A DNA stretch of 32,000 nt. Origin: Candidatus Saccharimonadota bacterium (GTDB taxonomy: Bacteria; Pseudomonadota; Gammaproteobacteria; Enterobacterales; Enterobacteriaceae). A program made the position numbers and the translations under genes. Shown piece by piece: positions 345 through 30,628 of this stretch (position 1 is its first letter; every line of letters starts with the position of its first letter). The stretch is from positions 150,001 to 182,000 of the forward strand of contig NZ_CP046226.1 in NCBI RefSeq assembly GCF_012562765.1. Direction: 5' to 3'. The notes under the pieces are model-generated. The model ran no database searches. It was not told the DNA's origin and saw only the letters and a list, made by a program, of their open reading frames with translations.

Positions 345-1286
345 ATGATAAAACATTTACCAGTTATGTTAAAAGAATCTATTGATAGTTTAAATATAAA
401 AAAAAATGGAATTTATATAGATGCTACATATGGATGTGGAGGACATACAAAATTAATTTTGTCTAAATTAGGAAATAAAGGACGTATTTATGCAATAGAT
501 TGTGATATAAAAACAATATTAATTAATAAAATTTTAGATAAAAGAATAATATATATAAATGAAAAATTTTCTAATTTAATAAATATTTTAGATACTCAAG
601 TTTTAGGTAAAATAGATGGAATATTATTTGATTTAGGATTTTCATCTTTTCAATTAAATGATCCTAAAAGAGGTTTTTCTTTTATGTTTGATGGTCCATT
701 AGATATGCGTTTTGATCAGAATCATGGAATAACTGCTACTGAATGGATTAAACAAGTTAGTAAAAATAAATTAGCTTATGTACTAAAAAAATATGGAGAA
801 GAAAAATTTGCTAATAAAATAGCATGTAATATTAAAAAATACATTATAAAAAATAAATTAGACAAAACTAGTCATTTAAATAAATTAATATTTTCTATAA
901 CATATAAATTAAAAAAAAATAAAAAAATATTTAAACATCCTGCAACAAGAACTTTTCAAGCTATAAGAATTTTTATTAATAAAGAATTAGAAGAATTAAA
1001 AAAAGCTTTATTTAATTCATTAAATATATTAAAAAAAGGAGGTATAATATCTGTAATTAGTTTTCATTCATTAGAAGATCGTATTGTAAAAAGATTTATG
1101 AAAACACATACTACAAATAATGATAAATATCATACTCGTATACCATTAACTGAAAAAGAAATAAATATTTTATCTAAAAAAGATTATAAATTAAAAATAA
1201 TTAATAGAATATTTCCTAGTTCTAAAGAAATTTATAATAATCCAAGATCAAGAAGTGCAATATTACGTGTAGGAAAAAAAATATAA
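345..1286 (+). CDS. rsmH: 16S rRNA (cytosine1402-N4)-methyltransferase RsmH (MraW)
   Basis: 313-aa ORF, collinear with E. coli RsmH. Motifs seen: GIYIDATYGCGGHT (SAM site), DGILFDLGFSSFQL, KHPATRTFQAIRIFIN, SFHSLEDRIVKRF, NPRSRSAILRV. First gene of the dcw cluster. Confidence 0.95.
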   Translation: MIKHLPVMLKESIDSLNIKKNGIYIDATYGCGGHTKLILSKLGNKGRIYAIDCDIKTILINKILDKRIIYINEKFSNLINILDTQVLGKIDGILFDLGFSSFQLNDPKRGFSFMFDGPLDMRFDQNHGITATEWIKQVSKNKLAYVLKKYGEEKFANKIACNIKKYIIKNKLDKTSHLNKLIFSITYKLKKNKKIFKHPATRTFQAIRIFINKELEELKKALFNSLNILKKGGIISVISFHSLEDRIVKRFMKTHTTNNDKYHTRIPLTEKEINILSKKDYKLKIINRIFPSSKEIYNNPRSRSAILRVGKKI

Positions 1287-1342
1287 ATAATTTAATTGTA
1301 TTAAATATTTTAATAAATATTTGAATTTTATAAGGTTAACTA

Positions 1343-2854
1343 TTGACTAGTTATAGATTAAATTTATCAGAATTATTAAATAATTTTATATATGATCATA
1401 AAATATCTAATATTATTATTAATAGAATAGTTTTAGATAGTCGTAAAATTAAAGGTCATCATTGTTTATTTTTAGCTATTAAAGGTTCTAAAGTAGATGG
1501 TAAAATTTTTATAGATGATGCTATTAAAAAAGGAGCTATTGCTATTATAACTTATAGTGAAAATAATATTTATCCATATAATATTATTTATAAAAATAAT
1601 ATTCCTATAATTACTTTACCTAATTTACAAGAACAAATTTCTTTTTTTGCTGGAAAATTATATAATAATCCTAGTCATAAAATACCTGTAATTGGAGTTA
1701 CAGGAACTAATGGGAAAACAAGTATTACTCATTTTTTAATGCAATGGATTAATTTATTAGGAAAAAAAGCAGCAATTTGTAGTACATTAGGTAATGGTTT
1801 TGATAAAAATTTAATAACTACTAATAATACAACAGATTCTGCTATTGATATTCAATATTTATTAAAAAATTTTGTAGAACAAAAAGCAGATATAGCTATT
1901 ATAGAAATATCTTCTCATGGTTTAAAACAATTTAGAGTATCTAATTTAAAATTTTCAGCAGGAATTTTTACAAATTTAAGTAGAGACCATTTAGATTATC
2001 ATCTTAATATGAAAAATTACGAACTAATTAAATGGAAATTTTTTTCTGAACATAAAATTAAAAAGAGAATAATAAATATTGATGATATTATAGGATATAA
2101 TTGGTTTAATAAATTATCTTATAGTAAAAATACTGTTGCTGTTACTACTAAAAAAAATATTTATTTTAAAAATAATTTATATTTTAAAGTTATTAAAATA
2201 AATTTTTTTAAAAATAATACTATTATTGAATTTAATTCAAGTTGGGGAAAAGGAAAAATTAAAATATTTCTTATTGGATATTTTAACGTTATTAACATTA
2301 TTTTAAGTATGACTACATTATTAACTTTAAATTTTTCTTTAAAAGAACTTATAGATACTTCATCTAAATTACATTCTGTTTATGGAAGAATGGAAATATT
2401 TCCTTCACAAAAAAAATATCCAACAGTTATAATTGATTATGCTCATACTCCTGATGCATTAAAAAATGTTCTTTTAACTATTAAATTATACTGTAAAGGA
2501 AAAATATGGTGTATATTCGGATGTGGTGGTGAAAGAGATATTGGAAAACGTTCAATTATGGGTATTATTGCTAAAAAATTTTCAGATATAATAATTATTA
2601 CTACTGATAATCCTAGATCAGAAAATATAATAAATATAGTTAAAGATATTATACAAGGATATAAATATCATGATAACTTACATATAATAATAAATAGATT
2701 TGAAGCAATTAATTATGCAATGAATAATGCTAATAAAAATGATGCTATACTAATAGCAGGCAAAGGTCATGAACAATATCAAATTATAGGGAATAAAATT
2801 TTTAATTATTCTGATTATAATGTTGTTAATAATTTTTTTAAAAAAAATAGCTAA
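1343..2854 (+). CDS. murE: UDP-N-acetylmuramoyl-L-alanyl-D-glutamate--2,6-diaminopimelate ligase MurE
   Basis: 503 aa. Mur-ligase P-loop GVTGTNGKTS; DYAHTPDAL; the DNPR motif (TTDNPRSEN) typical of meso-DAP-adding MurE. TTG start at 1343 preceded by aagg at 1332-1335. Only 56 bp after the rsmH stop. Confidence 0.93.
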   Translation: MTSYRLNLSELLNNFIYDHKISNIIINRIVLDSRKIKGHHCLFLAIKGSKVDGKIFIDDAIKKGAIAIITYSENNIYPYNIIYKNNIPIITLPNLQEQISFFAGKLYNNPSHKIPVIGVTGTNGKTSITHFLMQWINLLGKKAAICSTLGNGFDKNLITTNNTTDSAIDIQYLLKNFVEQKADIAIIEISSHGLKQFRVSNLKFSAGIFTNLSRDHLDYHLNMKNYELIKWKFFSEHKIKKRIINIDDIIGYNWFNKLSYSKNTVAVTTKKNIYFKNNLYFKVIKINFFKNNTIIEFNSSWGKGKIKIFLIGYFNVINIILSMTTLLTLNFSLKELIDTSSKLHSVYGRMEIFPSQKKYPTVIIDYAHTPDALKNVLLTIKLYCKGKIWCIFGCGGERDIGKRSIMGIIAKKFSDIIIITTDNPRSENIINIVKDIIQGYKYHDNLHIIINRFEAINYAMNNANKNDAILIAGKGHEQYQIIGNKIFNYSDYNVVNNFFKKNS

Positions 2855-4221
2855 TGAATAAATTAATTTGTTTAAAAAAAATAACAAAAATTGTGAATGG
2901 TAGATTAATTGGAAAAAATATTAATATATTAAATTTTTCTATAAATAGTAAAAAAATTAATGTTAAATGTTTATTTATTGCTATTCATGGAAAAAATTTT
3001 GATGGACATGATTTTGTTAAAGAAGCTATAAATAATGGTGTAATAGCTATAATTGTAAGTAAATATTTACAAGTAACAATTCCTCAAATAATTGTATCTG
3101 ATACAATTATTAGTTTAGGTAAAATAAGTTTATGGAAAAGATTACAATCAAAATCTCATTTTATAGGTATTACTGGATCATCTGGTAAAACATCTGTTAA
3201 AGAAATGACTGTATCAATTTTAAAAAATATAGGAAATACTTTATTTACTAAAAATAATATGAATAATATTATTGGTGTATCTTTGACATTATTAAATTTA
3301 AATAATCAATATAAATATACAATTATTGAGTTAGGAGCTAATAATTTAGATGATATTAAATATTCAAGTAATTTAGTTAGACCTAATACAGCTATTATTA
3401 ATAATATATCAGAATCTCATTTAGAAGGTTTTAAATCTTTTGAAAATATTATAAAATGTAAAAGTGATATATTTAAATTTTTATCAAATAATGATAGAGC
3501 AATTATTAATTTTGATGATATAAATTATAAAAAAATTTTATATAAATTAGTTAATAAAAAAATATGGACATTTTCTATAAATAATTATAATACTGATTTT
3601 TTTACTAGTAATTTAAAAATATTACAAAATAAAATTTATTTTAATTTACATACTCCAATAGGAGTTATCTTTATTAATTTATTTATTATTGGTGGATTAC
3701 ATAATGTAAGTAATGCATTAGCTGCTTCAGCATTATCATTATCTGCAGGAGCTTCTTTAAAAGATATATCTAAAGGTTTAGCTGATTTTAAACCAGTATT
3801 AGGTAGAATTTCCCCTATAAAATTAGGATATAATAAAATAATTTTAAATGATACATATAATGCTAATCCTCAGTCAGTTATAGCAGCTATTAATGTTTTA
3901 AAAAAAATGAATGGAAAAAAAATTTTAGTAATTGGTGATATGATGGAATTAGGATTTAATTCATTTTTTTATCATAATCAAATAAAAAACTTTATTTTAG
4001 AATGTAAATTAGATTATGTTTTAAGTATTGGAAATTATAGTAAATACATTACAAAAAATAATAATAATGCTGAACATTTTTCAAATAAAAAAACATTAAT
4101 TACAAAATTAATTAAAATATTAGCTAATTTTAATAAATTTACTATATTATTTAAAGGTTCTAGAAAAGCTCAAATAGAAATTTTAATAAATATGTTATTA
4201 GAGCAGGAAAAATTTAAATGA
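2854..4221 (+). CDS. murF: UDP-N-acetylmuramoyl-tripeptide--D-alanyl-D-alanine ligase MurF
   Basis: 455 aa. P-loop GITGSSGKTS, NDTYNANP, VIGDMMELG. The ATG shares one base with the murE stop (TAATG at 2852-2856). Confidence 0.93.
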   Translation: MNKLICLKKITKIVNGRLIGKNINILNFSINSKKINVKCLFIAIHGKNFDGHDFVKEAINNGVIAIIVSKYLQVTIPQIIVSDTIISLGKISLWKRLQSKSHFIGITGSSGKTSVKEMTVSILKNIGNTLFTKNNMNNIIGVSLTLLNLNNQYKYTIIELGANNLDDIKYSSNLVRPNTAIINNISESHLEGFKSFENIIKCKSDIFKFLSNNDRAIINFDDINYKKILYKLVNKKIWTFSINNYNTDFFTSNLKILQNKIYFNLHTPIGVIFINLFIIGGLHNVSNALAASALSLSAGASLKDISKGLADFKPVLGRISPIKLGYNKIILNDTYNANPQSVIAAINVLKKMNGKKILVIGDMMELGFNSFFYHNQIKNFILECKLDYVLSIGNYSKYITKNNNNAEHFSNKKTLITKLIKILANFNKFTILFKGSRKAQIEILINMLLEQEKFK

Positions 4222-5303
4222 TAATAATATTAGTTAAATATTTAAAATATTATTTTCCAATATTAAATATTTTTATTGGTTTAACTTTTCGTGCTATTAT
4301 TAGTCTTTTAACTTCTTTTTTTATTTCATTATATATTATTCCATATTTCATTATATTTTTAAAAAAAAAAAAATATTCTCAAGTAATTCGTTTAGATGGT
4401 CCAAAATCTCATTTTAAAAAAAATAATATTCCTACTATGGGTGGTATAGTAATATTAATATCATTTCTTATTTCTGTTTTATTTTGGTCTAATTTATATA
4501 ATCCATATTTATGGTATGTATTAATCATAGTTATATTTTATGCATTTATTGGTTTTATTGATGATTTTTATAAAATAATTTTAAATAATTCTATTGGTTT
4601 AGTAATTTATAAAAAAATTTTGTTACAAACTATTATAACAATAATAATTGTTACATTTTTTTATATAAATAATACAGAAAAATCTGCGTTACAATTAGTA
4701 ATTCCTTTTTATAAAAATCTTAAAATTTATTTAAATTTTCCTACATATTTAATGATTTCTTATTTAATTATATTATGGATTAGTAATTCTGTAAATTTAA
4801 CAGATGGATTAGATGGTTTAGCTATTATTTCTGTAATATTAGTTATTTTTGGATTATCATTATTATCATATGTTACAGGAGATATAAATTATTCTACATA
4901 TCTAAATATTCCATATTTAAAACATACAAAAGAATTAGTAATTATATGTACTGCTATTATTGGTTCAGGACTAGGTTTTTTATGGTTTAATACATATCCA
5001 GCAATTATATTTATGGGTGATATAGGATCATTATTTTTAGGAAGTGCTATAGGAATGATTACTGTTTTAATAAGACAAGAATTATTATTAATAATTATGG
5101 GTGGAATATTTTTATTAGAATCATTATCTGTAATTATTCAGGTTTTTTTTTATAAATATAAAAAATATCGTATATTTCTTATGGCTCCTATACATCATCA
5201 TTTTGAATTAAAAGGATATTTAGAATCCCATATTGTCATTAGATTTGGAATAATATCATTAATATTATTACTTATTGCTTTATCAATATTAAAGGTATGT
5301 TAA
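4218..5303 (+). CDS. mraY: phospho-N-acetylmuramoyl-pentapeptide transferase MraY
   Basis: 361-aa polytopic membrane protein. Motifs PTMGG, NLTDGLDGLA, FMGDIGSL, MAPIHHHFELKG. ATGA overlap with the murF stop (4218-4221). Contains an in-frame A13 tract at 4361-4373. Confidence 0.95.
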   Translation: MIIILVKYLKYYFPILNIFIGLTFRAIISLLTSFFISLYIIPYFIIFLKKKKYSQVIRLDGPKSHFKKNNIPTMGGIVILISFLISVLFWSNLYNPYLWYVLIIVIFYAFIGFIDDFYKIILNNSIGLVIYKKILLQTIITIIIVTFFYINNTEKSALQLVIPFYKNLKIYLNFPTYLMISYLIILWISNSVNLTDGLDGLAIISVILVIFGLSLLSYVTGDINYSTYLNIPYLKHTKELVIICTAIIGSGLGFLWFNTYPAIIFMGDIGSLFLGSAIGMITVLIRQELLLIIMGGIFLLESLSVIIQVFFYKYKKYRIFLMAPIHHHFELKGYLESHIVIRFGIISLILLLIALSILKVC

Positions 5304-6610
5304 TAAATATGATTAAAAAAGTAGTAATTATAGGTTTAGGAATTACTGGACTTTCATGTATTAAATTTTTTATTAATAAAGGTATTATACCATATATTAT
5401 GGATAGTAGAACTAATCCTCCTTTTATTAAAGAAATACCACCTTTAGTTAAATATTGTATTGGTTATCTTAATAAAGATTGGATTTTAAATGCTAATTTA
5501 ATTGTTATTAGTCCAGGAATTTCTATATTTCATCCATTATTAAAAAATGCTATAAATAAAGGAATTAAAATAATAGGAGATATTGAATTATTTTATTATT
5601 TTTCCAAAAATCCTATAATTGCTATTACAGGAACTAATGGAAAAAGTACTGTTACTAATATGATTGGAAAAATTATAAATAATTATTATAGTGCTGGAAT
5701 TGGAGGAAATATTGGGTATCCTGCATTAGAATTACTATCTAATTTTCAAAATTTTTATATATTAGAATTATCTAGTTTCCAATTAGAAACTATAAAAAAA
5801 TTTAAATCATATATATCTGTTATATTAAATATTTCATCAGATCACATGGATCGTTATCCATTAGGAATAGAACAATATCAAAAAATTAAATTAAATATTT
5901 ATAAAAATGCTTCTATATGTATATATAATGCTAATAATTCTTTAACATATCCAAATAATTTACAAAAAAATCAACGTGCTATTAGTTTTGGTATAAATAA
6001 AGGAAAATATCAAGTATATAAAAAACAAAAAAATATTTATTTAAAAGTAAATAATAAAATAATTTTAAATTTTAATAAAACTAAATTAATAGGAACACAT
6101 AATTATATTAATTCTTTAGCTGTATTAGCAATATCAGATATATTACATATACCAAGAAATATATCTTTAAAAATTATTAGTAATTACATGTTAAATAATC
6201 ATACATTACAGATTGTACATAAAAAAAATGGTGTTATTTGGATAAATGATTCTAAATCTACTAATATAAATAGTACAAAAGCAGCTTTAAGTTTTTTAGG
6301 TAATAATAAAAGAATATGGTTGTTATTAGGAGGATATGATAAAAATTGTGAATTTCATTTATTAAAAAAATATTTAATGAATGATAAGATTCATATTTAT
6401 TGTTTTGGATTAGCTAGTAAAAAAATATTATCTTTATATCCTAAAGCAATACAAGTACAGACTATGTCTGATGCGATAAAAAATATTTCAAAATTTTTAA
6501 AATATGGTGATATAGTTCTATTATCTCCAGCTTGCTCCAGTATTGATCAATTTATTAATTTTAAAGATCGTGGAGAAAAATTTATTGAATTAGCTAAACA
6601 GAATAATTAA
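5297..6610 (+). CDS. murD: UDP-N-acetylmuramoylalanine--D-glutamate ligase MurD
   Basis: 437 aa. VVIIGLGITGLS Rossmann N-terminus, ITGTNGKST P-loop, LELSSFQLE, INDSKSTN, LLSPACSSIDQF. Overlaps the mraY stop by 7 nt. An alternative ATG at 5309 is possible. Confidence 0.93.
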   Translation: MLINMIKKVVIIGLGITGLSCIKFFINKGIIPYIMDSRTNPPFIKEIPPLVKYCIGYLNKDWILNANLIVISPGISIFHPLLKNAINKGIKIIGDIELFYYFSKNPIIAITGTNGKSTVTNMIGKIINNYYSAGIGGNIGYPALELLSNFQNFYILELSSFQLETIKKFKSYISVILNISSDHMDRYPLGIEQYQKIKLNIYKNASICIYNANNSLTYPNNLQKNQRAISFGINKGKYQVYKKQKNIYLKVNNKIILNFNKTKLIGTHNYINSLAVLAISDILHIPRNISLKIISNYMLNNHTLQIVHKKNGVIWINDSKSTNINSTKAALSFLGNNKRIWLLLGGYDKNCEFHLLKKYLMNDKIHIYCFGLASKKILSLYPKAIQVQTMSDAIKNISKFLKYGDIVLLSPACSSIDQFINFKDRGEKFIELAKQNN

Positions 6611-6701
6611 AATAAATTTAAAAATTTAATTTTTCATTAATTTAAATATTTTTACATTATGTTAATATAATTAAATTTATTAAAAATTATATAAATAAAA
6701 A

Positions 6702-7763
6702 ATGTCAAAAAAAATTATTATAGTATCTGGTGGAACAGGTGGACATATTTATCCAGGTCTTAATATAGCATATAAATTAATAGAAAAAGGATGGAATGTT
6801 CGTTGGTTAGGTACTATTAATAGAATGGAAGCAAATATTATTCCTAAAACAGGAATAAAAATTAATTTTATTAAAGTTATAAAATTTGAAAAAAAAAATA
6901 TTTGGTCAAAAATAATTACTTTATTTAAATTAATAAAACCAATTTATGAATCTATTTTAATTTATAAATCTTATAAACCTAATATAGTTTTAACTATGGG
7001 AAGTTATATATCAGGACCTAGTGGAATAGCAGCTTGGTTATGTGGTATTCCTTTAATTATTCATGAACAAAATAGTATTCTAGGAATTACTAATAATATT
7101 TTATCAAAAATATCTACAATAAATATGCAAGCTTTTCCTAATACATTTAAAAATGGTATATTAGTAGGTAATCCTTTAAGTAAAGAAATAATAAAATTAT
7201 CTTTATTTAAAAAAAATATTGTAAAAAATAATTATATTCTTCATATATTAATTATGGGAGGTAGTCAAGGTTCTAATATTATTAATATTATAGGTGTACA
7301 ATTAGCAAAAATTTTAAAAAATAAAGTAATTATATTACATCAAGTAGGAAAAAATAATTTAAAAAATATTTCTTTATCTTTTTTAAATAAATATCAAAAA
7401 AAATTTTATTTTGTAACAGAATATATTTATAAGATTCATAATGCATATAAATGGGCAGATATTATTATTAGTAGGTCAGGAGCTATGACTGTTAGTGAAA
7501 TTTCTGCTATAGGGTTACCTGCTATTTTTATACCTTTTAAACATAAAGATAATCAACAATATTTAAATGCATTAAGATTAGCAAAAATTGGCGCAGCAAA
7601 AATTTTTGATCAAGATAATTTAAATATTAATGATATTATTAATACTTTATTATCTTGGAATAAGAAAACATTAAATATTATGTCAAAAAAATCTCGTAGT
7701 ATATCTTTAATTAATTCTACAGATTTAATTTATAGAGAAATAAAAAATATTTTAATTAATTAA
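6702..7763 (+). CDS. murG: UDP-N-acetylglucosamine--N-acetylmuramyl-(pentapeptide) pyrophosphoryl-undecaprenol GlcNAc transferase MurG
   Basis: 353 aa. SGGTGGHIYPG, IHEQNS, MGGSQGS, ISRSGAMTVSEI. Begins 91 bp after murD, at the position where ftsW sits in the canonical cluster. Confidence 0.93.
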   Translation: MSKKIIIVSGGTGGHIYPGLNIAYKLIEKGWNVRWLGTINRMEANIIPKTGIKINFIKVIKFEKKNIWSKIITLFKLIKPIYESILIYKSYKPNIVLTMGSYISGPSGIAAWLCGIPLIIHEQNSILGITNNILSKISTINMQAFPNTFKNGILVGNPLSKEIIKLSLFKKNIVKNNYILHILIMGGSQGSNIINIIGVQLAKILKNKVIILHQVGKNNLKNISLSFLNKYQKKFYFVTEYIYKIHNAYKWADIIISRSGAMTVSEISAIGLPAIFIPFKHKDNQQYLNALRLAKIGAAKIFDQDNLNINDIINTLLSWNKKTLNIMSKKSRSISLINSTDLIYREIKNILIN

Positions 7764-7791
7764 AATTATATAATATAAAATTACTACAATA

Positions 7792-9255
7792 ATGATAACA
7801 AATATGTTTAGTGAAAAAATAAATTATATAATACCTAAAATGGATAATATCAAAAATATTCATTTTATTGGTATTGGAGGTTCTGGTATGGGTGGTATAG
7901 CTTATATTTTATTGAAAAAAGGATATAATATAAGCGGATCAGATATTATTTCTAATAATATTACAAAAGATTTAATTTCATTAGGAGTAAAAATATATTT
8001 TAAACATAGTGCTAAAAATATTAATAATGCAAATGTAATTGTAGTATCTTCAGCAATAACAAATAATAATCCAGAAATAATTGCTGCTAAAAAAAATAAT
8101 ATTATAGTAATTAATCGAGCTCAAATGTTATCTGAAATAATGAGATTTTATTATGGTATAACAATAACTGGAAGTCATGGAAAAACTACTACTACTGCTA
8201 TAATATATTATATTTTTTCATCGTTAGGATTAGATCCAACATTTATTAATGGAGGAATTTTAAAAAAATCAGAATTATATGCTCATTTAGGAAAAAGTAA
8301 ATATTTTATAGCAGAAGCTGATGAAAGTGATGCTTCTTTTTTAAAATTAAGACCTATAATAAATATTATTACTAATATTGACGATGAACATTTAAATTAT
8401 TATCAGAATGATATTGAAATATTAAAAAATAATTTTTTAAAATATGCACAAAATATACCTTTTTATGGTTGTATTATTGTTTGTATTGACGATACATCTA
8501 TTCGTAATCTTATAAAAAATAATTTAATGCATAATAATATTATTACTTATGGTTTTAGTAAAGATGCAGATATAAGGATATTTAATTATCAACAATTTGG
8601 TTTAAAAAGTAAATTTACTTTATTAAAAGTAAAAGAAAATAAATTTTTAGAAATAAATTTAAATTTACCTGGTTATCATAATGTTTTAAATGCAACAGCA
8701 GCCTTTATTGTATCTTCTTATATAGGAATTAATCATAAATATATTTTAAAAGCATTAGAAAATTTTTCAGGAATTAAAAGAAGATTTGATCTCTTAGGTA
8801 TTTTTAAATATAAAAAAAATAATTTAATAAATAATATTATTCTTATTGAAGACTATGGACACCATCCTACTGAAATAAATATAACAATTAATACAATACG
8901 TATTACTTGGCCTAAAAAAAAAATTATAATGATATTTCAACCACATCGTTATTCTAGAACTATAAATTTATTTAATAAATTTATAAAAGTATTATCTACT
9001 GTTGATGTATTATTTTTATTAAATGTATATCCTGCTGGAGAAGAATATATTACTGGTGGAGATAGTATTTCTTTATATAAAAGTATTAAAAAATATGGAA
9101 AAATTAATCCAATTTTAAGCATATGGAAAAATTATAATGAAATGATTATAAGTTTATATTCAAAATTTACTGGAAATGATATATTATTAATTCAAGGAGC
9201 AGGAGATATTAATAATATCTCAACATTATTAGTAAAAAAAAAAATAAAATTGTAA
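7792..9255 (+). CDS. murC: UDP-N-acetylmuramate--L-alanine ligase MurC
   Basis: 487 aa. HFIGIGGSGMGGIA, TGSHGKTTTT P-loop, AEADESDASFL, DYGHHPTEI. An alternative start at Met5 (7804) is possible. Confidence 0.93.
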   Translation: MITNMFSEKINYIIPKMDNIKNIHFIGIGGSGMGGIAYILLKKGYNISGSDIISNNITKDLISLGVKIYFKHSAKNINNANVIVVSSAITNNNPEIIAAKKNNIIVINRAQMLSEIMRFYYGITITGSHGKTTTTAIIYYIFSSLGLDPTFINGGILKKSELYAHLGKSKYFIAEADESDASFLKLRPIINIITNIDDEHLNYYQNDIEILKNNFLKYAQNIPFYGCIIVCIDDTSIRNLIKNNLMHNNIITYGFSKDADIRIFNYQQFGLKSKFTLLKVKENKFLEINLNLPGYHNVLNATAAFIVSSYIGINHKYILKALENFSGIKRRFDLLGIFKYKKNNLINNIILIEDYGHHPTEINITINTIRITWPKKKIIMIFQPHRYSRTINLFNKFIKVLSTVDVLFLLNVYPAGEEYITGGDSISLYKSIKKYGKINPILSIWKNYNEMIISLYSKFTGNDILLIQGAGDINNISTLLVKKKIKL

Positions 9256-9297
9256 TTTTTTACATTGTCAAAAATATTTTTTATAAAAAAATTAAAT

Positions 9298-10215
9298 ATG
9301 TCTAATAAAATAGCCGTTTTATATGGTGGTGATTCACCAGAAAGAAAAATATCTTTAATTTCAGGAAAAATGGTGTTAAATTCAATGAAATTAATGGGTA
9401 TTCAAGCTTATGGAATAGATACTAGAAATTTTTCTTTATTTTTATTAAAAAAAAAATTTAAAAAAGTTTTTATTGCTTTACATGGAAAAGGAGGTGAAGA
9501 TGGAAGTGTACAAACTATATTAAAATATCTTAATATTCCTTATACTGGTAGTAGAGCATTAGCTTCTTCTATAACTATAAATAAATTTATTACAAAAACT
9601 TTGTGGAAAGAATATGGTTTACCTGTATATCCACATTTTTTATTAAAAAAAAAATATTTTATTAAAAAAAATTATTTAGAAATAAAAAAAAATATTTTAA
9701 ATTTGAAATTACCTGTATGTGTAAAACCTAATTCTACAGGATCAAGTTTAGGAGTTTTTAAAGTAGATAATATTAATTATTTATTTAATGCTATAAAAAA
9801 ATCTTTTATATATAGTAATAGTGTATTAATTGAAAAATATATTGAAGGAATAGAATATACAGTTAGTATTTTAGGTAATAAAACATTACCATCAATTAGA
9901 ATTTCTTCACCTTATGTATTATATAATTATAAAGCAAAATATTTTAATAAAAAAACTCAATATTTTTGTCCTAGTGGGTTAAATAAATATAAAGAAATAG
10001 AAATATCCAAATTAGCTATAAATGCATGGAATGTATTAGAATGTAGTGGTTGGGGTAGAGTAGATATAATTTTAGATAAAAAAAATAATTTTCAATTATT
10101 AGAAATAAATACTTGTCCAGGAATGACTCCTCATAGTTTATTTCCTATAGCTGCTCAAAAAGCTGGTTTTTCTTTTAATGATGTAATTAAAAAAATTTTA
10201 TTTTTAGCTAAATAA
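9298..10215 (+). CDS. ddl: D-alanine--D-alanine ligase
   Basis: MSNKIAVLYGGDSPERKISL aligns with the E. coli DdlB N-terminus. Also HGKGGEDGSVQ and EINTCPGMT (ATP-grasp). I place the start at ATG 9298 rather than the TTG at 9265 used by the ORF track. Confidence 0.92.
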   Translation: MSNKIAVLYGGDSPERKISLISGKMVLNSMKLMGIQAYGIDTRNFSLFLLKKKFKKVFIALHGKGGEDGSVQTILKYLNIPYTGSRALASSITINKFITKTLWKEYGLPVYPHFLLKKKYFIKKNYLEIKKNILNLKLPVCVKPNSTGSSLGVFKVDNINYLFNAIKKSFIYSNSVLIEKYIEGIEYTVSILGNKTLPSIRISSPYVLYNYKAKYFNKKTQYFCPSGLNKYKEIEISKLAINAWNVLECSGWGRVDIILDKKNNFQLLEINTCPGMTPHSLFPIAAQKAGFSFNDVIKKILFLAK

Positions 10216-10336
10216 TTCATATTATTTTTATAAAAAAATATAAAACTATATCAAAAAATATTTTTAATAAAATTATATAAATATCATTTAAAAATTTTAT
10301 TTCTATAATTATATTTTTAAAAAATATTTTATAAAA

Positions 10337-10810
10337 TTAATTTGCTAAAGAAGCTAATTGTTCTATGATATAACGTAATTTTATAGGACTTTTTTTAGCT
10401 AGGTTAAGTAATAATATAGCACTATTTTTACTTAAAGTATTTTGTTTATAAAAATATTTTTTTTTTAATATTTTATTATTTGTTAATAACATTGGATTAA
10501 TTTTAATATTTATATTTTTTAAAGAAGGAAAAATTTCTTTTTTTAAAAGTAATAAAATATTTGATTTTTCATATAAAAATCTCATCATAGAGCTAGCATT
10601 ATATGTTTCTACAATTAAAATATTATTTTTAAAATTTTTTGCATTATAGCAATTACTTAACTCTATTGGGAAATAATTTTTAATTGTTTGATTAATTTTT
10701 TTTAAAATATTTATATATAATTTTAATTTTATGAATATTCTTGAACAAGAAGGATAATTATATTCATTATAAAATATTTTTTCAATTGATAATAACTTAT
10801 TATTACGCAT
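10337..10810 (-). CDS. conserved-position hypothetical protein; candidate DUF721/DciA-like helicase-loading factor
   Basis: 157-aa ORF with no stop codon in a genome where AT-rich stop triplets are very frequent, so it is probably real coding sequence. It is divergent from secA across 130 bp. That is the slot and orientation a DUF721 gene occupies between lpxC and secA in Pseudomonas/Vibrio-type genomes (from my recollection). The core segment NNILIVETYNASSMMRFLYEKSNILLLLKKEIFPSLKNINIKINP resembles the DUF721 strand-helix-strand pattern. No search was run. Confidence 0.4.
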   Translation of the reverse strand: MRNNKLLSIEKIFYNEYNYPSCSRIFIKLKLYINILKKINQTIKNYFPIELSNCYNAKNFKNNILIVETYNASSMMRFLYEKSNILLLLKKEIFPSLKNINIKINPMLLTNNKILKKKYFYKQNTLSKNSAILLLNLAKKSPIKLRYIIEQLASLAN

Positions 10811-10940
10811 AAAATATTTATCCTTTTAATAAAATTAATTAAAAATAATTATTAATTATAAATTATTTAATAATTTATTTATAATAAATAAATTTAAATT
10901 TCTTACATTATAATTATAAATTTTATTTAAGAGTATATAT

Positions 10941-24292: not shown

Positions 24293-25255
24293 TTAACGAG
24301 AATTAATCTTATATTTAAAATAAATATTTATACATTTTTCACTACAACAATTATGATATTTATCCTTACACGAAGAACATTGAATAAATAATAAATGACA
24401 AAAATTATTTTTACAATTTGTATAAATATCATAATAATTATTACATTGATAACAATGTGAAATAATATCTTTAGTTACTAATTCACTCATTCTATTATCA
24501 AAAACAAAATTTTTTCCTTTAAATTTTATAGGTAAATTATTTTTTTTAGCATCATTAATATAACCTATAATTCCGCCTTTAATATGAAAAATATTTTTAA
24601 AATTATTATATATTAACCAAGAAGTAGCTTTTTCACAACGAATACCACCTGTACAATATAAAATAATATTTTTATTTTTATATTGTTGTAAATTATATAA
24701 TAATGTTGACATTTGTTCTCTAAAATTATTTGCTGGTCTAAATATAATAGCATTATTAAAATGACCTATTTTATATTCATAATAATTTCTTATATCTATA
24801 ATAACAGTATTATTACAATCTATCATTTTATTTACTTGATAAGCATTTAAATATTTACCTACAATTATAAATTGTAAGAAATTAAAATTTTTTATACCAT
24901 CATTTATGATATTTTTTTTATTTATAACTCTTAAAACCCAAAATGCATTTTTTTTATTTTCTATTGCCGAATTTATGTATAAATTTTTTAATTGTGGATG
25001 TAATTTATATAAAAAAAATTTCATTATTTCATAAAAATAATTAGGTATACTAATTTGTGCATTTATTCCTTCATAAGAAATATATATTCTTCCAAAAATA
25101 TTTATAGTATTAAATAAAATATAAATATTATTACGAAATTCTAATGGATCATTAATAAAAAAATATTTATAAAAAGATATAATTTTTCTTTCTTCATTAT
25201 TTTTAAATATAATTTTTCTTAATTTAGAATTAGATTCTCTATTATGTAATAACAT
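24293..25255 (-). CDS. trhO: rhodanese-domain tRNA uridine(34) hydroxylase TrhO (YceA)
   Basis: 320 aa, collinear with E. coli YceA. ISFYKYF, FGRIYISYEGINAQISIP, DIRNYYEYKIGHF.NA, YCTGGIRCEKA (rhodanese active-site loop), and the C-terminal Cys cluster HCYQC...CKNNFCHLLFIQCSSC. Confidence 0.9.
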   Translation of the reverse strand: MLLHNRESNSKLRKIIFKNNEERKIISFYKYFFINDPLEFRNNIYILFNTINIFGRIYISYEGINAQISIPNYFYEIMKFFLYKLHPQLKNLYINSAIENKKNAFWVLRVINKKNIINDGIKNFNFLQFIIVGKYLNAYQVNKMIDCNNTVIIDIRNYYEYKIGHFNNAIIFRPANNFREQMSTLLYNLQQYKNKNIILYCTGGIRCEKATSWLIYNNFKNIFHIKGGIIGYINDAKKNNLPIKFKGKNFVFDNRMSELVTKDIISHCYQCNNYYDIYTNCKNNFCHLLFIQCSSCKDKYHNCCSEKCINIYFKYKINSR

Positions 25256-25275
25256 AAAAATTCCTTAATAATTCA

Positions 25276-25359
25276 TTACCGAAGATCGGATTTGAACCGA
25301 TATATCATAAATGATAGTTGATTTTGAATCAACTGCGTTTACCTATTTCGCCACTTCGG
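25276..25359 (-). tRNA. leuX: tRNA-Leu (anticodon CAA), class II with long variable arm
   Basis: I folded the reverse complement by hand: acceptor ACCGAAG/CTTCGGT; D arm GCG-AAATAGGTAAA-CGC; anticodon stem GTTGA/TCAAC with loop TTCAAAA; 5-bp variable stem TATCA/TGATA; T arm ATCGG-TTCAAAT-CCGAT; discriminator A. It is near-identical to my recollection of E. coli leuX through the D and anticodon arms. The 3' CCA is not encoded. Confidence 0.9.
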
Positions 25360-25455
25360 TAAAATAATTCTTCATATATTAATTTATTTTAACATAAAAT
25401 TATCTATTAATATTTATTTAAATTATATAAAACTTAAATATTTTTTATAATTTTC

Positions 25456-25485
25456 TTGACAAAAACATATTTTTAATAATAAAAT
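25456..25485 (+). promoter_or_regulatory. candidate sigma-70 promoter for tRNA-Asn
   Basis: A perfect TTGACA (25456-25461) is rare in this composition. It is followed after 18 bp by TAAAAT (25480-25485), about 17 nt upstream of the tRNA 5' end. The -10 choice is ambiguous in AT-only sequence. Confidence 0.3.
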
Positions 25486-25502
25486 TATTTTAATTATGAT
25501 AT

Positions 25503-25578
25503 TCCTCTGTAGTTCAGTTGGTAGAACGGCGGACTGTTAATCCGTATGTCACTGGTTCGAATCCAGTCAGGGGAGCCA
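25503..25578 (+). tRNA. asnT: tRNA-Asn (anticodon GUU)
   Basis: 76 nt, almost identical to E. coli tRNA-Asn as I recall it: TCCTCTGTAGTTCAGTTGGTAGAACGGCGGACTGTTAATCCGTATGTCACTGGTTCGAATCCAGTCAGGGGAGCCA. Anticodon loop CTGTTAA. The 3' CCA is encoded. There is one T4:G69 wobble in the acceptor stem. Confidence 0.95.
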
Positions 25579-25671
25579 ATAAAATAATATAATTATATTA
25601 TTTAAATCTTTTTAAATAAAAATATAATTTTTAATTTTAATAATTTTATATTTTTTCTTAGTTAATTTTTT

Positions 25672-26616
25672 ATGCATATAAATTTAAAAAAAATTCTTAA
25701 AATAGAAATTATTAATGAACTTTTATCTATAAAAGATATGATTCGTTGGTCAACTAGTTGTTTTAGTATATCTAATATATGGTATGGACATGGTACTAAT
25801 AATCCTTTAGATGAATCTATTCAATTAATATTACCTATATTAGGATTACCACCATATATATTAAATAATGTATGGGATGCAAAATTAACTTTACAAGAAC
25901 GTAAATTAATATTTAAATTAGTATCAAAAAGAATAAAAGATAGAATTCCTATAGTATATTTAACAAATAAAACTTGGTTTTGTGGTCATGAGTTATATAT
26001 TGATAGAAGAGTATTAATACCTAGATCACCAATATCTGAATTAATTAATAATAAATTTCAATTTAATGGATTAAAATTAAATTTTACTCCTAAAAATATA
26101 TTAGATTTATGTACTGGAAGTGGATGTATTGCTATTGCTTGTGCATATTTATTTCCTAAATCTTATATAGATGCTATAGATATTTCTTTAGATGCTATTA
26201 ATATTACTGAATTTAATATTAAATTACATAATTTAGAAAATCGTATTACTCCTATTCATAGTAATTTATTTGAAAAATTACATACTTCTTATTCTTATGA
26301 TTTAATAATAGCTAATCCTCCTTATGTTGATAAAAATGAATTAAATTTTTTACCTAAAGAATATTCATATGAACCACAAATAGGATTATTATCTGAAGAT
26401 AATGGATTAGATCTTATTAATAAAATTATAATAAATTCTTTTTTTTATCTTAAAAAAAATGGTATTTTAATTTGTGAAGTAGGAAATAAAATGAAATATA
26501 TTATAAAAAAATATCATTTTATAAATTTTCAATGGTTAAAAATAAGAAATGGTGGTATAGGAATATTTAAAATAGATCGAAATATAATAGAAAAGATAAG
26601 AATAATTCAGAGGTAA
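25672..26616 (+). CDS. prmB: 50S ribosomal protein L3 glutamine N5-methyltransferase PrmB (YfcB)
   Basis: 314 aa, collinear with E. coli Prm[84 protein letters not shown]. The prmB-aroC adjacency is the same as in E. coli. Confidence 0.92.
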
Positions 26617-26621
26617 AATAT

Positions 26622-27698
26622 ATGTCAGGTAATAGTATTGGTACAATATTTCGTGTTACTACATATGGAGAATCTCATGGAATCTCTTTAGGATGTATTA
26701 TAGATGGAGTTCCACCAGGTTTTCCATTAAAAGAAAATGATTTACAAAAAGATTTAGATAGAAGAAGACCTGGAAATTCAAAATATACTTCTCCAAGAAG
26801 AGAATTAGATATAATTAAAATTATGTCTGGAACATTTAATGGTTTAACTACCGGAACAAGTGTTGGTCTTATGATTAAAAATATGGATCAGAGATCACAA
26901 GATTATAATAATATTAAAAATATTTTTCGTCCTGGACATGCTGATTATACATATAAAAAAAAATATGGTATACGAGATTATAGAGGTGGAGGACGTTCTT
27001 CTGCTAGAGAAACAACTATGCGTGTTGCTGCTGGAGCTATTGCAAAAAAATATTTATTTATGAAATTTAATACTAAAATTAGAGGTTATTTATCACAAAT
27101 GGGAAATATTGTTTGTGATTTTGAAAATTGGTCAGAAGTAAATAATAATCCTTTTTTTTGTCCTAATATTAATCAAATACAAAATTTAAAAAATATGATA
27201 AATCATTTAAAAAAAACAGGTGATTCTATAGGTGCTAAAATTACTATTATTATAGAAAATGTACCTGTAGGATTAGGTGAACCAGTTTTTGATAAATTAG
27301 ATGCAGATTTAGCTCATTCTTTAATGAGTATAAATGCTGTTAAAGGTGTAGAAATAGGTGATGGATTTAAATCTATAACTACATTAGGTAGTCATTATCG
27401 TGATGAAATTAGAGCTAATGGATTTCAAAGTAATCATTCTGGTGGAATTTTAGGAGGTATTAGTACAGGACAAAATATTATTATTAATTTTGCTATGAAA
27501 CCTACTTCTAGTATTTCTATTTTAGGGAAAACAATAGACATTAATAATAATGAAGTTCAATGTACAACACAAGGAAGACATGATCCCTGTGTTGGTATAA
27601 GAGCTGTTCCTATAGGAGAAGCAATGGTAGCAATAACATTATTAGATCATTTATTAAGATATCGTGCACAATGTTCAGACGTTTTTTTAAAAGATTAA
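26622..27698 (+). CDS. aroC: chorismate synthase
   Basis: 358 aa. [79 protein letters not shown] within the end of prmB. Confidence 0.96.
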
Positions 27699-28300
27699 TA
27701 TAGTTGTTGTATATTATTAGTTAAATAATCTGAAATACCTTTTGATGTAGGTATTATACTTTTTTTACCTTTTTCCCATTGAGCAGGACAAACTTCTCCA
27801 TATTTTTCATAATGTTTTAAAGCATCAATCATTCTTATCATTTCATTAATATTTCTACCAAATGGTAAATCATTTACTAATTGATGTCTTATAATACCAT
27901 TTTTATCTATTAAAAATGAAGCTCTTAATGCAATTCCTAATTCAGGATGTTCAATACCATATTTTTGTTGAATTTCTTTTTTAAGATCAGATACTATTGT
28001 AAATTTTATTTTTCCAATTCCACCTTTTTGAATTGGAGTATTACGCCATGCATTATGAGTAAATTGTGAATCACATGAAATACCTAATATTTTTACATTT
28101 CTTTTATTAAAATCATTATAATGATTATTAAATGATATTATTTCTGAAGGACAAACAAATGTAAAATCTAAAGGCCAAAAAAATATAACAGTAATTTTAT
28201 TCTTAGAATATTCTTTAAAATTAAAATTATCAATTATTGAACCATCATTTAAAACAGCTGAAGCATTAAAATCAGGAGCTTTTTTTGTAACTAAAATCAT
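27695..28300 (-). CDS. ahpC: typical 2-Cys peroxiredoxin (AhpC/TsaA family, about 200-aa thioredoxin-dependent type)
   Basis: 201 aa. Peroxidatic Cys in [14 protein letters not shown] and resolving Cys in [20 protein letters not shown] 7 nt before the ATG. Its stop codon overlaps the aroC stop within TTAA (27695-27698). Confidence 0.88.
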
Positions 28301-28432
28301 AATAATTTCCTAAAATTTTGTTTGATCAAATATAATTTTTTGTGTTATTTTATACAATATTTAGTTATCATTCAATTAATTATTTTTAAATATAAAAATA
28401 ATTATAATTTTAATTATTAAGGAATAAAATAA

Positions 28433-28777
28433 ATGAATTTTTTCATTTCTAATATAGAAGCAGCTACACAAAATGACATACATTCTAAAGAAAATATTAT
28501 TTCTTTATTTATTATGATTTTAATTTTTGGTATAATATGTTATTTATTAATAATTAAACCTCAAAATAAAAAAAATAAAGAACAAAAAAAATTAATAGAT
28601 TCTCTTACTAATGGAGATGAAATATTAACAACAGGTGGTATTATTGGTAAAATTATTAAAATTTCAGATTATGGATATATTACTGTTTTAGTAAATAATA
28701 ATAATCAAATTCTTATTAAAAGAGATTTTGTTGTTTCAATTATACCAAAAGGTACTGTAAAAAAATTTTTTTCATAA
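28433..28777 (+). CDS. yajC: preprotein translocase subunit YajC
   Basis: 114 aa. FFIS...AAT, a single TM segment, KPQ.K..KE.KKL.DSL..GDE.LT.GG..G...K....GYI.......IKRDFV....PKGT. Collinear with E. coli YajC and located upstream of secDF. Confidence 0.9.
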   Translation: MNFFISNIEAATQNDIHSKENIISLFIMILIFGIICYLLIIKPQNKKNKEQKKLIDSLTNGDEILTTGGIIGKIIKISDYGYITVLVNNNNQILIKRDFVVSIIPKGTVKKFFS

Positions 28778-28801
28778 TTTATTATTAATAGGAATTTTAT
28801 T

Positions 28802-30628
28802 GTGTTAAATAAGTATTATTGGTGGCAATATATTCTGATAGTTTTATTTATTATAATTGGAATTATATATTCATTACCAAATATATATACAGATATTCCT
28901 ATTATACAAATTAATATTTCTAATAAAAATTTGTCAAAAATAAAAATTTTAGAAAATATTAAAAATAAATTAAATGTTAATAGAATTAGTTATAAAAAAT
29001 ATTTAATTAAAAAAAATAATATTAATATTATTTTTTTTAATATAGAAAACCAATTACAAGCATATAAAATAATTAAAGAAAATTCTAATAATAAATATAG
29101 TGTAATAATAAAATTAATTTCAACTATTCCAAAATGGTTATCTTTTTTAAAAGCTAAACCAATTAAATTAGGATTAGATTTAAAAGGTGGAATATATTTT
29201 TTATTAAGAATTAATAATGATTATATTTTTCAAAAATTAAGAGAACAAAACATTACAGATTTAAAATTAATATTAAATAATAAGAATATTTCATTTCAAT
29301 TAAAAAGATTAAATAATTTTAATTATAAAATTATTTTTAGTAATAATGTAATAAGAAATAAAGTATTTAATTATTTAAAAAATAAAAATAATAATTTTGT
29401 TAATTATATTATAATTAATAATGGTTTATTAGTGTCTATGAAAAACAAATGGTTTTTAGAATTAAAAAAAGCCATTATAGAAAACAATATAGATGTATTA
29501 CGTAAACGAGTTAATCAAATAGGTATTTCTGATTCTATAGTACAAAAAAAAGGAATAGATAATATTATTATAGAACTTCCTGGAATACAAAATCTTTCAG
29601 AAGCAAAAGAAATATTAGGTAGTACAGCAACATTAGAATTTCATTTAGTTGATAATAATATAAATAATATTCAAAATAATAATTTTTCTTATTATTTATG
29701 GAAAAATAAAATTCCTCTTTTTTTAAATAAAAAAATAATAATAGATGGATCTAATATTATTCATTCAAATATTAGTAGAAGTGAATATAATCAACCTCAA
29801 GTAAATATTTTTTTAGATGATAAAGGTGGAAATATTTTATCTAAATTTTCTGAAAAACATATTGGAGATAACATTGCTACAGTATTAGTAAATTATATAA
29901 ATAGTGATAAAAAAGATAAAAAAGGAAATTTTATACAAAATAAAAAAGAAGAAATAATAAATATAGCTACTATAAAATCAAAATTAAATAATAGTTTTGT
30001 AATAACTGGATTAAAAAATATAAAAGAAGCAAAAAATTTATCAATTTTATTAAGATCTGGTTCATTAAGTGCACCTATACAAATAATAGAAGAACAAAAT
30101 ATTGGTCCTTCAGTTGGTAAAGAAAATATTAAAAAAGGAATGAAAGCTTGTATTATAGGTATTTCAATATGTATTATATTTATGATATTTTATTATAATA
30201 TATTTGGTATAATTGCAGTTATTGCTTTATTTATTAATTTAATTTTTATTATAAGTTTACTTTCTCTTTTACCTAATGCTACATTAACAATGTCAGGTAT
30301 TGCAGGAATAGTTTTAACATTAGCTATTGCCATAGATGCAAATGTTTTAATTAATGAAAGAATAAAAGAAGAACTAGATAATGACATATCTATTCAAAAA
30401 GCCATAGATTATGGTTATAAAGGAGCATTTTCTAGTATTTTTGATGCTAATATAACAAATTTAATTATTTCTAGTTTTTTATATAGTTTAGGTTCTAGAG
30501 AAATACAAGGATTTGCTGTTACTACTTTTATTGGTATTTTAACATCTATGTTTACTTCTATAATTATTACTAGAGCAATAGTAAATATTATTTATGGTGG
30601 TAAAAAAATAAAAAAATTACCTATTTAA
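28802..30628 (+). CDS. secD: protein translocase subunit SecD
   Basis: 608 aa. GTG start. N-terminus MLNKYYWWQYILIVLFIIIGIIYSLPNIY parallels E. coli SecD. LGLDLKGG, VELPGIQ-like IIELPGIQN, a large periplasmic domain, and C-terminal RND-like TM helices (LTMSGIAGIVLTLAIAIDANVLI.ERI.EE). Confidence 0.93.
   Translation: MLNKYYWWQYILIVLFIIIGIIYSLPNIYTDIPIIQINISNKNLSKIKILENIKNKLNVNRISYKKYLIKKNNINIIFFNIENQLQAYKIIKENSNNKYSVIIKLISTIPKWLSFLKAKPIKLGLDLKGGIYFLLRINNDYIFQKLREQNITDLKLILNNKNISFQLKRLNNFNYKIIFSNNVIRNKVFNYLKNKNNNFVNYIIINNGLLVSMKNKWFLELKKAIIENNIDVLRKRVNQIGISDSIVQKKGIDNIIIELPGIQNLSEAKEILGSTATLEFHLVDNNINNIQNNNFSYYLWKNKIPLFLNKKIIIDGSNIIHSNISRSEYNQPQVNIFLDDKGGNILSKFSEKHIGDNIATVLVNYINSDKKDKKGNFIQNKKEEIINIATIKSKLNNSFVITGLKNIKEAKNLSILLRSGSLSAPIQIIEEQNIGPSVGKENIKKGMKACIIGISICIIFMIFYYNIFGIIAVIALFINLIFIISLLSLLPNATLTMSGIAGIVLTLAIAIDANVLINERIKEELDNDISIQKAIDYGYKGAFSSIFDANITNLIISSFLYSLGSREIQGFAVTTFIGILTSMFTSIIITRAIVNIIYGGKKIKKLPI

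Follow-up and report, generated by a model that had tools for sequence, protein, structure and literature searches.

The 32,000-nucleotide stretch of DNA analysed here (hereafter the window; C1:150001-182000) belongs to the chromosome of the symbiont of the reed beetle Plateumaris pusilla, a member of the 'Ca. Macropleicola' clade whose genome comprises two replicons, a chromosome of 514,699 bp and a plasmid of 5,276 bp, with a GC content of 20% and an estimated completeness of 98.55%. The window carries a division and cell wall (dcw) cluster which, judged by its gene order, has undergone clean ancestral deletions of mraZ, ftsL-ftsI, ftsW, ftsQ-ftsA-ftsZ-lpxC and secM. FtsZ and the rest of the divisome have been lost from the genome as a whole rather than relocated. 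The cell very probably still makes peptidoglycan, and the MreB-guided Rod complex would be the only machine polymerising it in this genome. Division in these bacteria must follow a non-standard, undescribed route, and on the whole it seems probable that the data are best explained by the combination of a pruned dcw cluster, no divisome, a wall built by the Rod complex alone and a fission process dependent on that complex.

A dcw cluster without division genes

The ancestral arrangement of this region is preserved in a free-living member of the same family (G116), in which the order is mraZ-rsmH-ftsL-ftsI-murE-murF-mraY-murD-ftsW-murG-murC-ddlB-ftsQ-ftsA-ftsZ-lpxC-(dciA)-secM-secA. Between positions 345 and 13673 the window retains rsmH-murE-murF-mraY-murD-murG-murC-ddl-(dciA, minus strand)-secA in the same order and orientation as the canonical gammaproteobacterial cluster of E. 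coli and G116, whereas all the division genes together with mraZ, lpxC and secM have been cut out, leaving spacers of 56-130 bp. Of the ten long open reading frames (ORFs), the nine on the plus strand each score above the curated NCBIfam cut-off for the protein after which they are named (RsmH, MurE, MurF, MraY, MurD, MurG, MurC, Ddl and SecA), and ORFs of 300-900 codons are too long to be chance products in DNA of 19% GC (the GC content within the window is 17-26%). The successive spacers measure 56, 91, 28, 42, 121 and 130 bp. When set against the ORF coordinates and NCBIfam scores, the gene order, coordinates, gaps and overlaps given in a preliminary description of this DNA proved accurate. 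The features are as follows:

345..1286, plus strand: rsmH (16S rRNA m4C1402 methyltransferase), which opens the dcw cluster in its pruned form; TIGR00006, 335.5 bits against a cut-off of 154; 46% identity to E. coli RsmH
1287..1342, unstranded: junction of 56 bp in the ftsL-ftsI slot; free-living G116 carries ftsL and ftsI here
1343..2854, plus strand: murE (meso-DAP-adding ligase); NF001123, 608 bits against a cut-off of 586
2854..4221, plus strand: murF, overlapping murE by 1 nt (2854); TIGR01143, 384.9 bits against a cut-off of 288.6
4218..5303, plus strand: mraY, overlapping murF by 4 nt (4218-4221); TIGR00445, 378.8 bits against a cut-off of 192
5297..6610, plus strand: murD, overlapping mraY by 7 nt (5297-5303); TIGR01087, 378.3 bits against a cut-off of 212
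6611..6701, unstranded: junction of 91 bp in the ftsW slot; in G116 ftsW lies between murD and murG, and the sole SEDS gene of the present genome is rodA at C1:327187-328224
6702..7763, plus strand: murG; TIGR01133, 301.2 bits against a cut-off of 250
7792..9255, plus strand: murC; TIGR01082, 498.5 bits against a cut-off of 335
9298..10215, plus strand: ddl (D-Ala-D-Ala ligase); NF002378, 345.9 bits against a cut-off of 243
10216..10336, unstranded: junction of 121 bp at the site of ftsQ-ftsA-ftsZ-lpxC; in G116 these four genes all lie between ddlB and dciA, and none was found genome-wide here
10337..10810, minus strand: dciA (DnaB helicase loader, DUF721), standing at its ancestral site and untouched by the deletions
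10811..10940, unstranded: junction of 130 bp in the secM slot; secM precedes secA in G116 and E. coli
10941..13673, plus strand: secA, bounding the cluster on its downstream side; NF009538, 1197 bits against a cut-off of 814

Neither tblastn nor phmmer detected a remnant of ftsL or ftsI in the 56-bp junction, and both searches were also negative for SecM genome-wide and, with the E. coli query, for mraZ in the window and in the genome, in agreement with the earlier remark that no mraZ precedes rsmH. Upstream of rsmH lies a minus-strand ORF of 803 aa, tentatively called mutS on its N-terminal sequence alone and not on a family search. The start codon of ddl is most likely the ATG at 9298, which aligns with residue 1 of E. 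coli DdlB and gives the 42-bp spacer; the longest ORF begins at a TTG at 9265.

We compared the syntenic 15 kb in each of 23 congeneric genomes, all of about 0.45-0.52 Mb in two contigs. The order rsmH-murE-murF-mraY-murD-murG-murC-ddl-(dciA)-secA and the same short junctions recur in all 23, with protein identities to the window of 52-94% (52-67% in the most distant genomes). As these are separate genomes, the concordance of all 24 rules out the possibility, raised in the preliminary description, that the junctions are assembly artefacts. It also implies that the deletions are older than the radiation of the clade, host diversification being dated to 75-100 million years (My) ago (PMC7289800). 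Since the deletion the Mur ORFs have remained open in the congeners, apart from one murG frameshift, and their intactness across 24 genomes despite divergence to 52-67% identity supports the earlier proposal of continued selection on them. The frameshift is in a Donacia symbiont (G016, L043:7501-8561), where murG is split once after about residue 68 in an A/T-rich stretch, the neighboring Mur genes being intact. It could be a sequencing error, a lesion tolerated through slippage, or a very recent inactivation; as it is a single frameshift, we rejected this 'pseudogene' as evidence for a dispensable pathway.

The divisome and the wall-synthesis machinery in the rest of the genome

Searches with a hidden Markov model (HMM) of FtsZ recovered no match in this genome or in any of the 23 congeners; the same model was positive in 16 of the 17 genomes that lie outside the genus, as well as in all or nearly all named control genomes. 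The FtsA HMM gave only sub-cut-off matches to MreB and DnaK in all 24 genomes, and the HMMs for FtsK, FtsQ, FtsL and FtsB/DivIC yielded no credible match in this genome but only sub-threshold cross-hits, such as a DivIC match of 12 bits inside a 516-aa frame and an FtsK match of 12.6 bits inside a 423-aa frame, both of which were dismissed. When E. coli K-12 proteins were searched by tblastn and phmmer against the complete genome sequence and its translation in six frames, FtsZ, FtsA, FtsQ, FtsL, FtsB, FtsK, FtsN, ZipA and FtsX were not found, nor were MinC/D/E, LpxA/B/C/D, MrcB, RlpA and MreD. The matches to FtsE were dismissed as other ABC ATPases, which lack an FtsX partner. The only FtsW- and FtsI-like sequences are an adjacent mrdB/mrdA pair (C1:327.2-330.2 kb), whose products show 54% and 51% identity to RodA and PBP2 versus 33% and 23% to FtsW and FtsI.

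The preliminary description had left two branches, namely that the fts genes are absent genome-wide or that they have moved elsewhere; the HMM, tblastn and phmmer searches of both replicons bear out the former, and the latter found no support in either replicon. The probability that the genes relocated within the genome or onto the plasmid, or that the junctions arose by assembly collapse, is negligible: besides the negative searches, the junction architecture is identical in 23 other complete genomes, the plasmid, rejected as a site of moved fts genes, encodes only an inverse autotransporter, a prephenate dehydratase and TrfA, and the published 26-genome ortholog table of the clade has no ftsZ entry. 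Of the proteins that the preliminary description had singled out for a genome-wide search, the Fts set and LpxC were not found, and RodA/PBP2, MreB, MurA, MurB and MurJ were.

The lipid-II pathway is represented by MurA, MurB, MurC, MurD, MurE, MurF, MurG, MraY, Ddl, MurI, Alr, DapF and UppS, and the flippase MurJ, the carboxypeptidase DacA and DapD are also present, as are MreB (488 bits), MreC, RodA and PBP2. Each of the 24 genomes contains one SEDS gene and one transpeptidase-domain gene, adjacent to each other in the mrdA-mrdB arrangement (Pfam scores of 378 and 226 bits for the RodA/PBP2 pair), and both RodA and PBP2 are intact in all 24; PBP2 keeps the motifs STVK, SAD and KSG, and RodA keeps W102, D159 and D262. 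A 363-aa ORF after rodA, suspected to be RlpA, was rejected as a class-V aminotransferase, taken as serC. The earlier statement that the organism makes a peptidoglycan precursor but lacks FtsZ and FtsW/FtsI therefore stands as far as it goes, but has to be extended, because the survival of MreB, MreC, RodA and PBP2 elsewhere in the genome turns a cell that makes lipid II into one that very probably makes a wall with the elongation machine only.

MreB shares 91% identity with its E. coli counterpart, N-terminus included, and has no special N-terminal extension. In NG86 estimates of the ratio of nonsynonymous to synonymous substitution rates (dN/dS) against four Plateumaris sister genomes it has by far the lowest values among 19 genes (0.035-0.08), compared with 0.24-0.30 for secA, about 0.27-0.42 for most Mur genes (0.24-0.42 for secA, rsmH and most Mur genes taken together) and 0.38-0.51 for rodA; these ratios are inflated by AT bias, dS being compressed at 20% GC, and are comparable only among themselves, for which reason dN/dS was dropped as an absolute test of selection. 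Published RNA-seq data on congeners give a baseMean of 24,570-28,866 for mreB as against 1,372-2,320 for mreC and 1.6-2.1 thousand for minD (PMC12508126 supplements). In the present genome murB, aroQ (on the minus strand), mreB and mreC are clustered (L017:1536-5142; G000:C1:5535-9141). The product of mreC has 270 aa (367 in E. coli), and the gene is followed after 171 bp by one for a PmbA/TldD-family peptidase; the E. coli neighbors mreD, yhdE and rng are not at this murB-mreB-mreC locus.

No GT51 domain or class-A penicillin-binding protein was detected in this genome. In four other Plateumaris symbionts a monofunctional GT51 gene encoding 256-289 aa (MtgA-like; L079-L082) is retained, and the corresponding interval here (G000:C1:380604-381633; 1,030 bp), between htpG and aroK (named from their protein sequences, with no family search), is 68% identical to that of the sisters but stop-filled, with a longest open stretch of 52 codons. 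Here mtgA is thus a recent pseudogene, and its loss leaves RodA as the only polymerase in the genome. DacA is the only wall-trimming enzyme that we found; M23 matches of 13-14 bits, inside frames of 1402 and 517 aa, were dismissed, and the published annotation table has no 'murein', 'lytic' or 'amidase' entries. Queries with the E. coli proteins did not find glmS, glmM or glmU in this genome, and GlmU is listed in only one of the 26 genomes of the published ortholog table, so that UDP-GlcNAc, the first substrate of the Mur pathway, must be imported from the host. The E. coli CdsA query likewise had no match in this genome.

Growth and fission without FtsZ

Very few lineages of walled bacteria are known to divide independently of FtsZ, and according to reviews those that lack FtsZ but have peptidoglycan genes, namely Chlamydia, the Planctomycetes and Wolbachia supergroup J, all keep FtsK and other parts of the late divisome. 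The Chlamydiae, which the preliminary description had offered as a parallel, resemble the present symbiont in being host-associated, in their reduced genome, in the lack of FtsZ and FtsA, and in the retention of the lipid-II pathway, MurJ, MreB, RodA and PBP2. The parallel ends there, since they also keep FtsK, FtsQ- and FtsL-like proteins, FtsW, FtsI/PBP3, RodZ and an amidase (PMC10591338, PMC11975371), none of which was detected here, and the present organism belongs to the Gammaproteobacteria, its MreB being E. coli-like and devoid of any special N-terminal extension. Wolbachia supergroup J is likewise an obligate symbiont, with ftsZ and ftsA at 0% and murA-G, pbp2 and rodA kept (PMC10591338, Table 2); unlike the reed beetle symbiont, it is an alphaproteobacterium that is positive for ftsK and partly for ftsQ (PMC10591338), neither of which has an equivalent here. 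The Planctomycetes also divide as walled cells without FtsZ but are free-living with large genomes, and in Planctopirus FtsK appears essential and MreB, FtsW and FtsI dispensable, whereas the present genome lacks FtsK, and MreB is more constrained than any other gene measured in it. Buchnera aphidicola of Lachninae aphids, another insect symbiont of the Enterobacterales that keeps half of the wall and division toolkit, presents the mirror image, with ftsZ and ftsA kept and the Mur pathway, MreB, RodA and PBP2 lost (PMC10591338).

To place these observations in a wider setting, FtsZ was screened in 400 genomes drawn evenly from the GTDB order. It was missing from the present genome, from a 1.0-Mb genome of the same family (G174), from ten genomes of 0.2-0.3 Mb, and from one fragmented 5.2-Mb assembly, in which the absence most likely reflects an assembly gap. 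The tiny 0.2-0.3 Mb genomes have no MurG, MreB or SEDS gene. G174, whose MurG coordinates agree with those of locus L002, is Ca. Ecksteinia adelgidicola, an adelgid symbiont of the same GTDB family (0.98 Mb, CP045239.1; locus L002:1101-20716), which has no FtsZ genome-wide and keeps rsmH, murE, murF, mraY, murD, murG, murC and ddlB with ftsL, ftsI, ftsW, ftsQ, ftsA and ftsZ gone. It differs from the reed beetle symbionts in having gene-free gaps of 1.6, 1.1 and 2.5 kb in the ftsL-ftsI, ftsW and ftsQ-ftsA-ftsZ slots and in retaining intact lpxC and secA; it possesses MurG but no MreB and no SEDS gene genome-wide, and is hence not a Rod-complex organism. By the sequence of its locus it represents a second, independent case of the same selective loss at an earlier stage, and together with the reed beetle symbionts it indicates that selective pruning of fts genes from the dcw cluster recurs in symbionts. 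The combination of no divisome, a full Mur pathway and an intact Rod complex is confined to the reed beetle genus within the 400-genome sample.

Both the loss of division genes in obligate insect symbionts and the existence of FtsZ-less walled bacteria are known themes; what is new is a more extreme case in an E. coli-like lineage, an entire genus of the same family as E. coli (Enterobacteriaceae of both NCBI and GTDB) in which the whole divisome is gone and only the elongation machine is left. The literature on the clade has overlooked this loss. The genome paper (PMC7289800) states only that peptidoglycan synthesis is retained and does not mention ftsZ or division.

A tentative model, for which we would claim a little less than an even standing, is that the cells grow as filaments driven by the Rod complex and that fission is FtsZ-independent, with the same MreB/RodA/PBP2 machine supplying the wall synthesis needed at the fission site. 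In principle this would resemble division in Chlamydia, minus its FtsK/FtsQLB/FtsWI module. As no known peptidoglycan hydrolase family was detected, the wall cleavage required for growth and separation would have to come from host enzymes or from unrecognised proteins. A role of MreB in fission is favored because it is both the most constrained of the genes compared and highly expressed, and because Chlamydia, the experimentally studied FtsZ-less host-associated walled lineage, works via MreB. Among congeners, the symbionts of larvae form filaments in Donacia thalassina and have irregular shapes in Macroplea mutica, and those of adults are round (PMC12508126); the larval shapes are those expected of elongation without a regular divisome.

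Several observations weigh against this proposal. The round adult-stage cells are not predicted by an active Rod complex. MreD was not found with the E. coli query or at the mreC locus, the RodZ_C domain was not detected in this genome (the N-terminal HTH of RodZ was not searched for), and PBP2 and MreC evolve fast, with dN/dS of 0.48-0.82, to be read with the same AT-bias inflation as the other ratios. The partners of MreB in chlamydial division (FtsK, FtsQ/L-like proteins, FtsW/FtsI, RodZ and AmiA/NlpD) were not detected here. Neither were Amidase_3, SLT, M23, NlpC/P60 or YceG/MltG domains, which leaves the enlargement and splitting of the sacculus unaccounted for. Further, an FtsZ-specific HMM cannot formally exclude a very divergent tubulin-fold protein.

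The main alternative is passive or host-driven fission, in which the Rod-made wall serves only shape and osmotic robustness, above all during the extracellular stages in the egg jelly coat and the Malpighian tubule lumen, and the cells separate through MreB-independent, L form-like membrane dynamics, through mechanical fragmentation as in ftsZ nulls of Streptomyces, or through cutting by host enzymes. We regard this as unlikely, though still a substantial competitor: the whole septal toolkit is missing along with all recognised wall hydrolases, the congeners are irregular or filamentous as larval symbionts and round in adults, the extracellular phases of the life cycle (PMC7289800) provide a reason for a wall that is independent of division, and a planctomycete is reported to tolerate the loss of MreB, FtsW and FtsI (PMC6952346). 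However, MreB is the most constrained of 19 genes and highly transcribed in congeners, beyond what shape alone would appear to need in a host-sheltered cell, and a cell enclosed in a cross-linked sacculus can pinch off only by remodelling its wall locally. The loss of every recognised hydrolase fits neither passive fission nor Rod-dependent fission cleanly. It is also conceivable, although very improbable, that no functional sacculus exists and that the Mur pathway is kept mainly as a source of lipid-II or muropeptide signals to the immune or developmental system of the host. The failure to detect wall hydrolases, class-A penicillin-binding proteins, MreD and RodZ, the absence of UDP-GlcNAc synthesis, the frameshifted murG of G016, and the retention of Mur genes without a SEDS gene or MreB in Ca. 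Ecksteinia could all be cited in its favor. Yet all 24 genomes encode intact RodA and PBP2 with every catalytic residue, MurJ, DacA and MreC, which are needed only if a polymer is made outside the membrane, have been kept, and the murG defect is one frameshift, which may reflect erroneous sequencing or be overcome through slippage.

The congeners add a further element to the problem of division, in that minD, absent from the present genome, is kept in 16 of the 23. The minCDE operon lies between rnt and tsaB (loci L044-L059: minC at about 290-1070, minD at 1097-1907, minE at 1866-2205) and is intact in most of these 16, and FtsZ and FtsA are absent from every genome of the genus. Congener MinD is 72-76% identical to that of E. 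coli, and median dN/dS is 0.12 for MinD, 0.24 for MinE and 0.37 for MinC (0.50 in the N-domain, 0.31 in the C-domain). The operon has been cleanly deleted in the present genome and G015, both from Plateumaris, and in three Donacia genomes (G008, G018 and G006), leaving an rnt-tsaB gap of 150-860 bp (G000:C1:126157-126305 here). By HMM, G013, G019 and G011 have no minD; the Neohaemonia symbiont G017 has lost minE and the N-terminal half of minC, its C-terminal half being left, and G003 and G014 have only a partial minE. The Min system appears from these patterns to be selectively maintained in bacteria without FtsZ. In PMC12508126, where FtsZ is never mentioned, minC is interpreted as a 'Z-ring positioning protein' and minCDE is assumed to control the division of the symbionts; this reading of minC needs correction, as there is no Z-ring protein in these genomes.

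The boldest reading of these data, and one that we consider rather doubtful, is that MreB-MreC-RodA-PBP2 alone, without FtsZ, FtsA, FtsK, FtsQLB, FtsWI, RodZ, MreD, class-A penicillin-binding proteins or hydrolases of its own, has sufficed for 75-100 My to let a walled Gram-negative cell both grow and divide, and that Min in the 16 congeners has a non-FtsZ target, for example in the positioning of MreB/Rod or in chromosome partition. The genus bears in any case on how little machinery a walled cell needs in order to divide and on the role of Min without FtsZ. Its 24 genomes form a natural series with and without minCDE, with and without MtgA, and in one instance with a frameshifted murG, and the closeness of its proteins to those of E. 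coli (91% for MreB, 72-76% for MinD) makes genetic and biochemical tests in E. coli realistic.

The dciA gene and the plasmid

The minus-strand ORF at 10337-10810, which the preliminary description had left unnamed, turns out to be an ordinary resident of the locus. Taken alone it scores 22.6 bits with Pfam DciA, just below the cut-off of 24, but ten of its 23 orthologues match DciA, and a profile of the 23 orthologues matches PDB 8a3v_C (a DUF721 protein) with E 1.9e-11 over residues 25-154, nearly the full length. In the free-living relative G116 an ORF 37% identical to it occupies the same slot on the same strand, between lpxC and secM-secA. DnaB is present in this genome (73% identity), and the E. 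coli queries for the phage-derived loader DnaC and for DnaT had no match in it. The profile match, the synteny with G116 and the lack of DnaC and DnaT together identify the ORF as dciA in its ancestral slot, neither a remnant nor an insertion, and the lineage as derived from a DciA-type rather than a DnaC-type member of the family. The presence of dciA in an 'Enterobacteriaceae' symbiont was considered as an anomaly and rejected as such, because most families of the order have the gene, as do four of the 13 other genera in the GTDB family; where checked, it lies next to ftsZ-lpxC.

The 5.3-kb plasmid, which among public sequences best matches that of the Macroplea mutica symbiont, encodes on its plus strand (L015:1-2808) an inverse autotransporter of 935 aa that belongs to the intimin/invasin type (IAT_beta, 216 bits, with BIg21 and an InvE adhesion domain), which adjoins the genes for prephenate dehydratase and TrfA and is absent from the main text of PMC7289800. 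This protein may serve in attachment to or entry into host cells.

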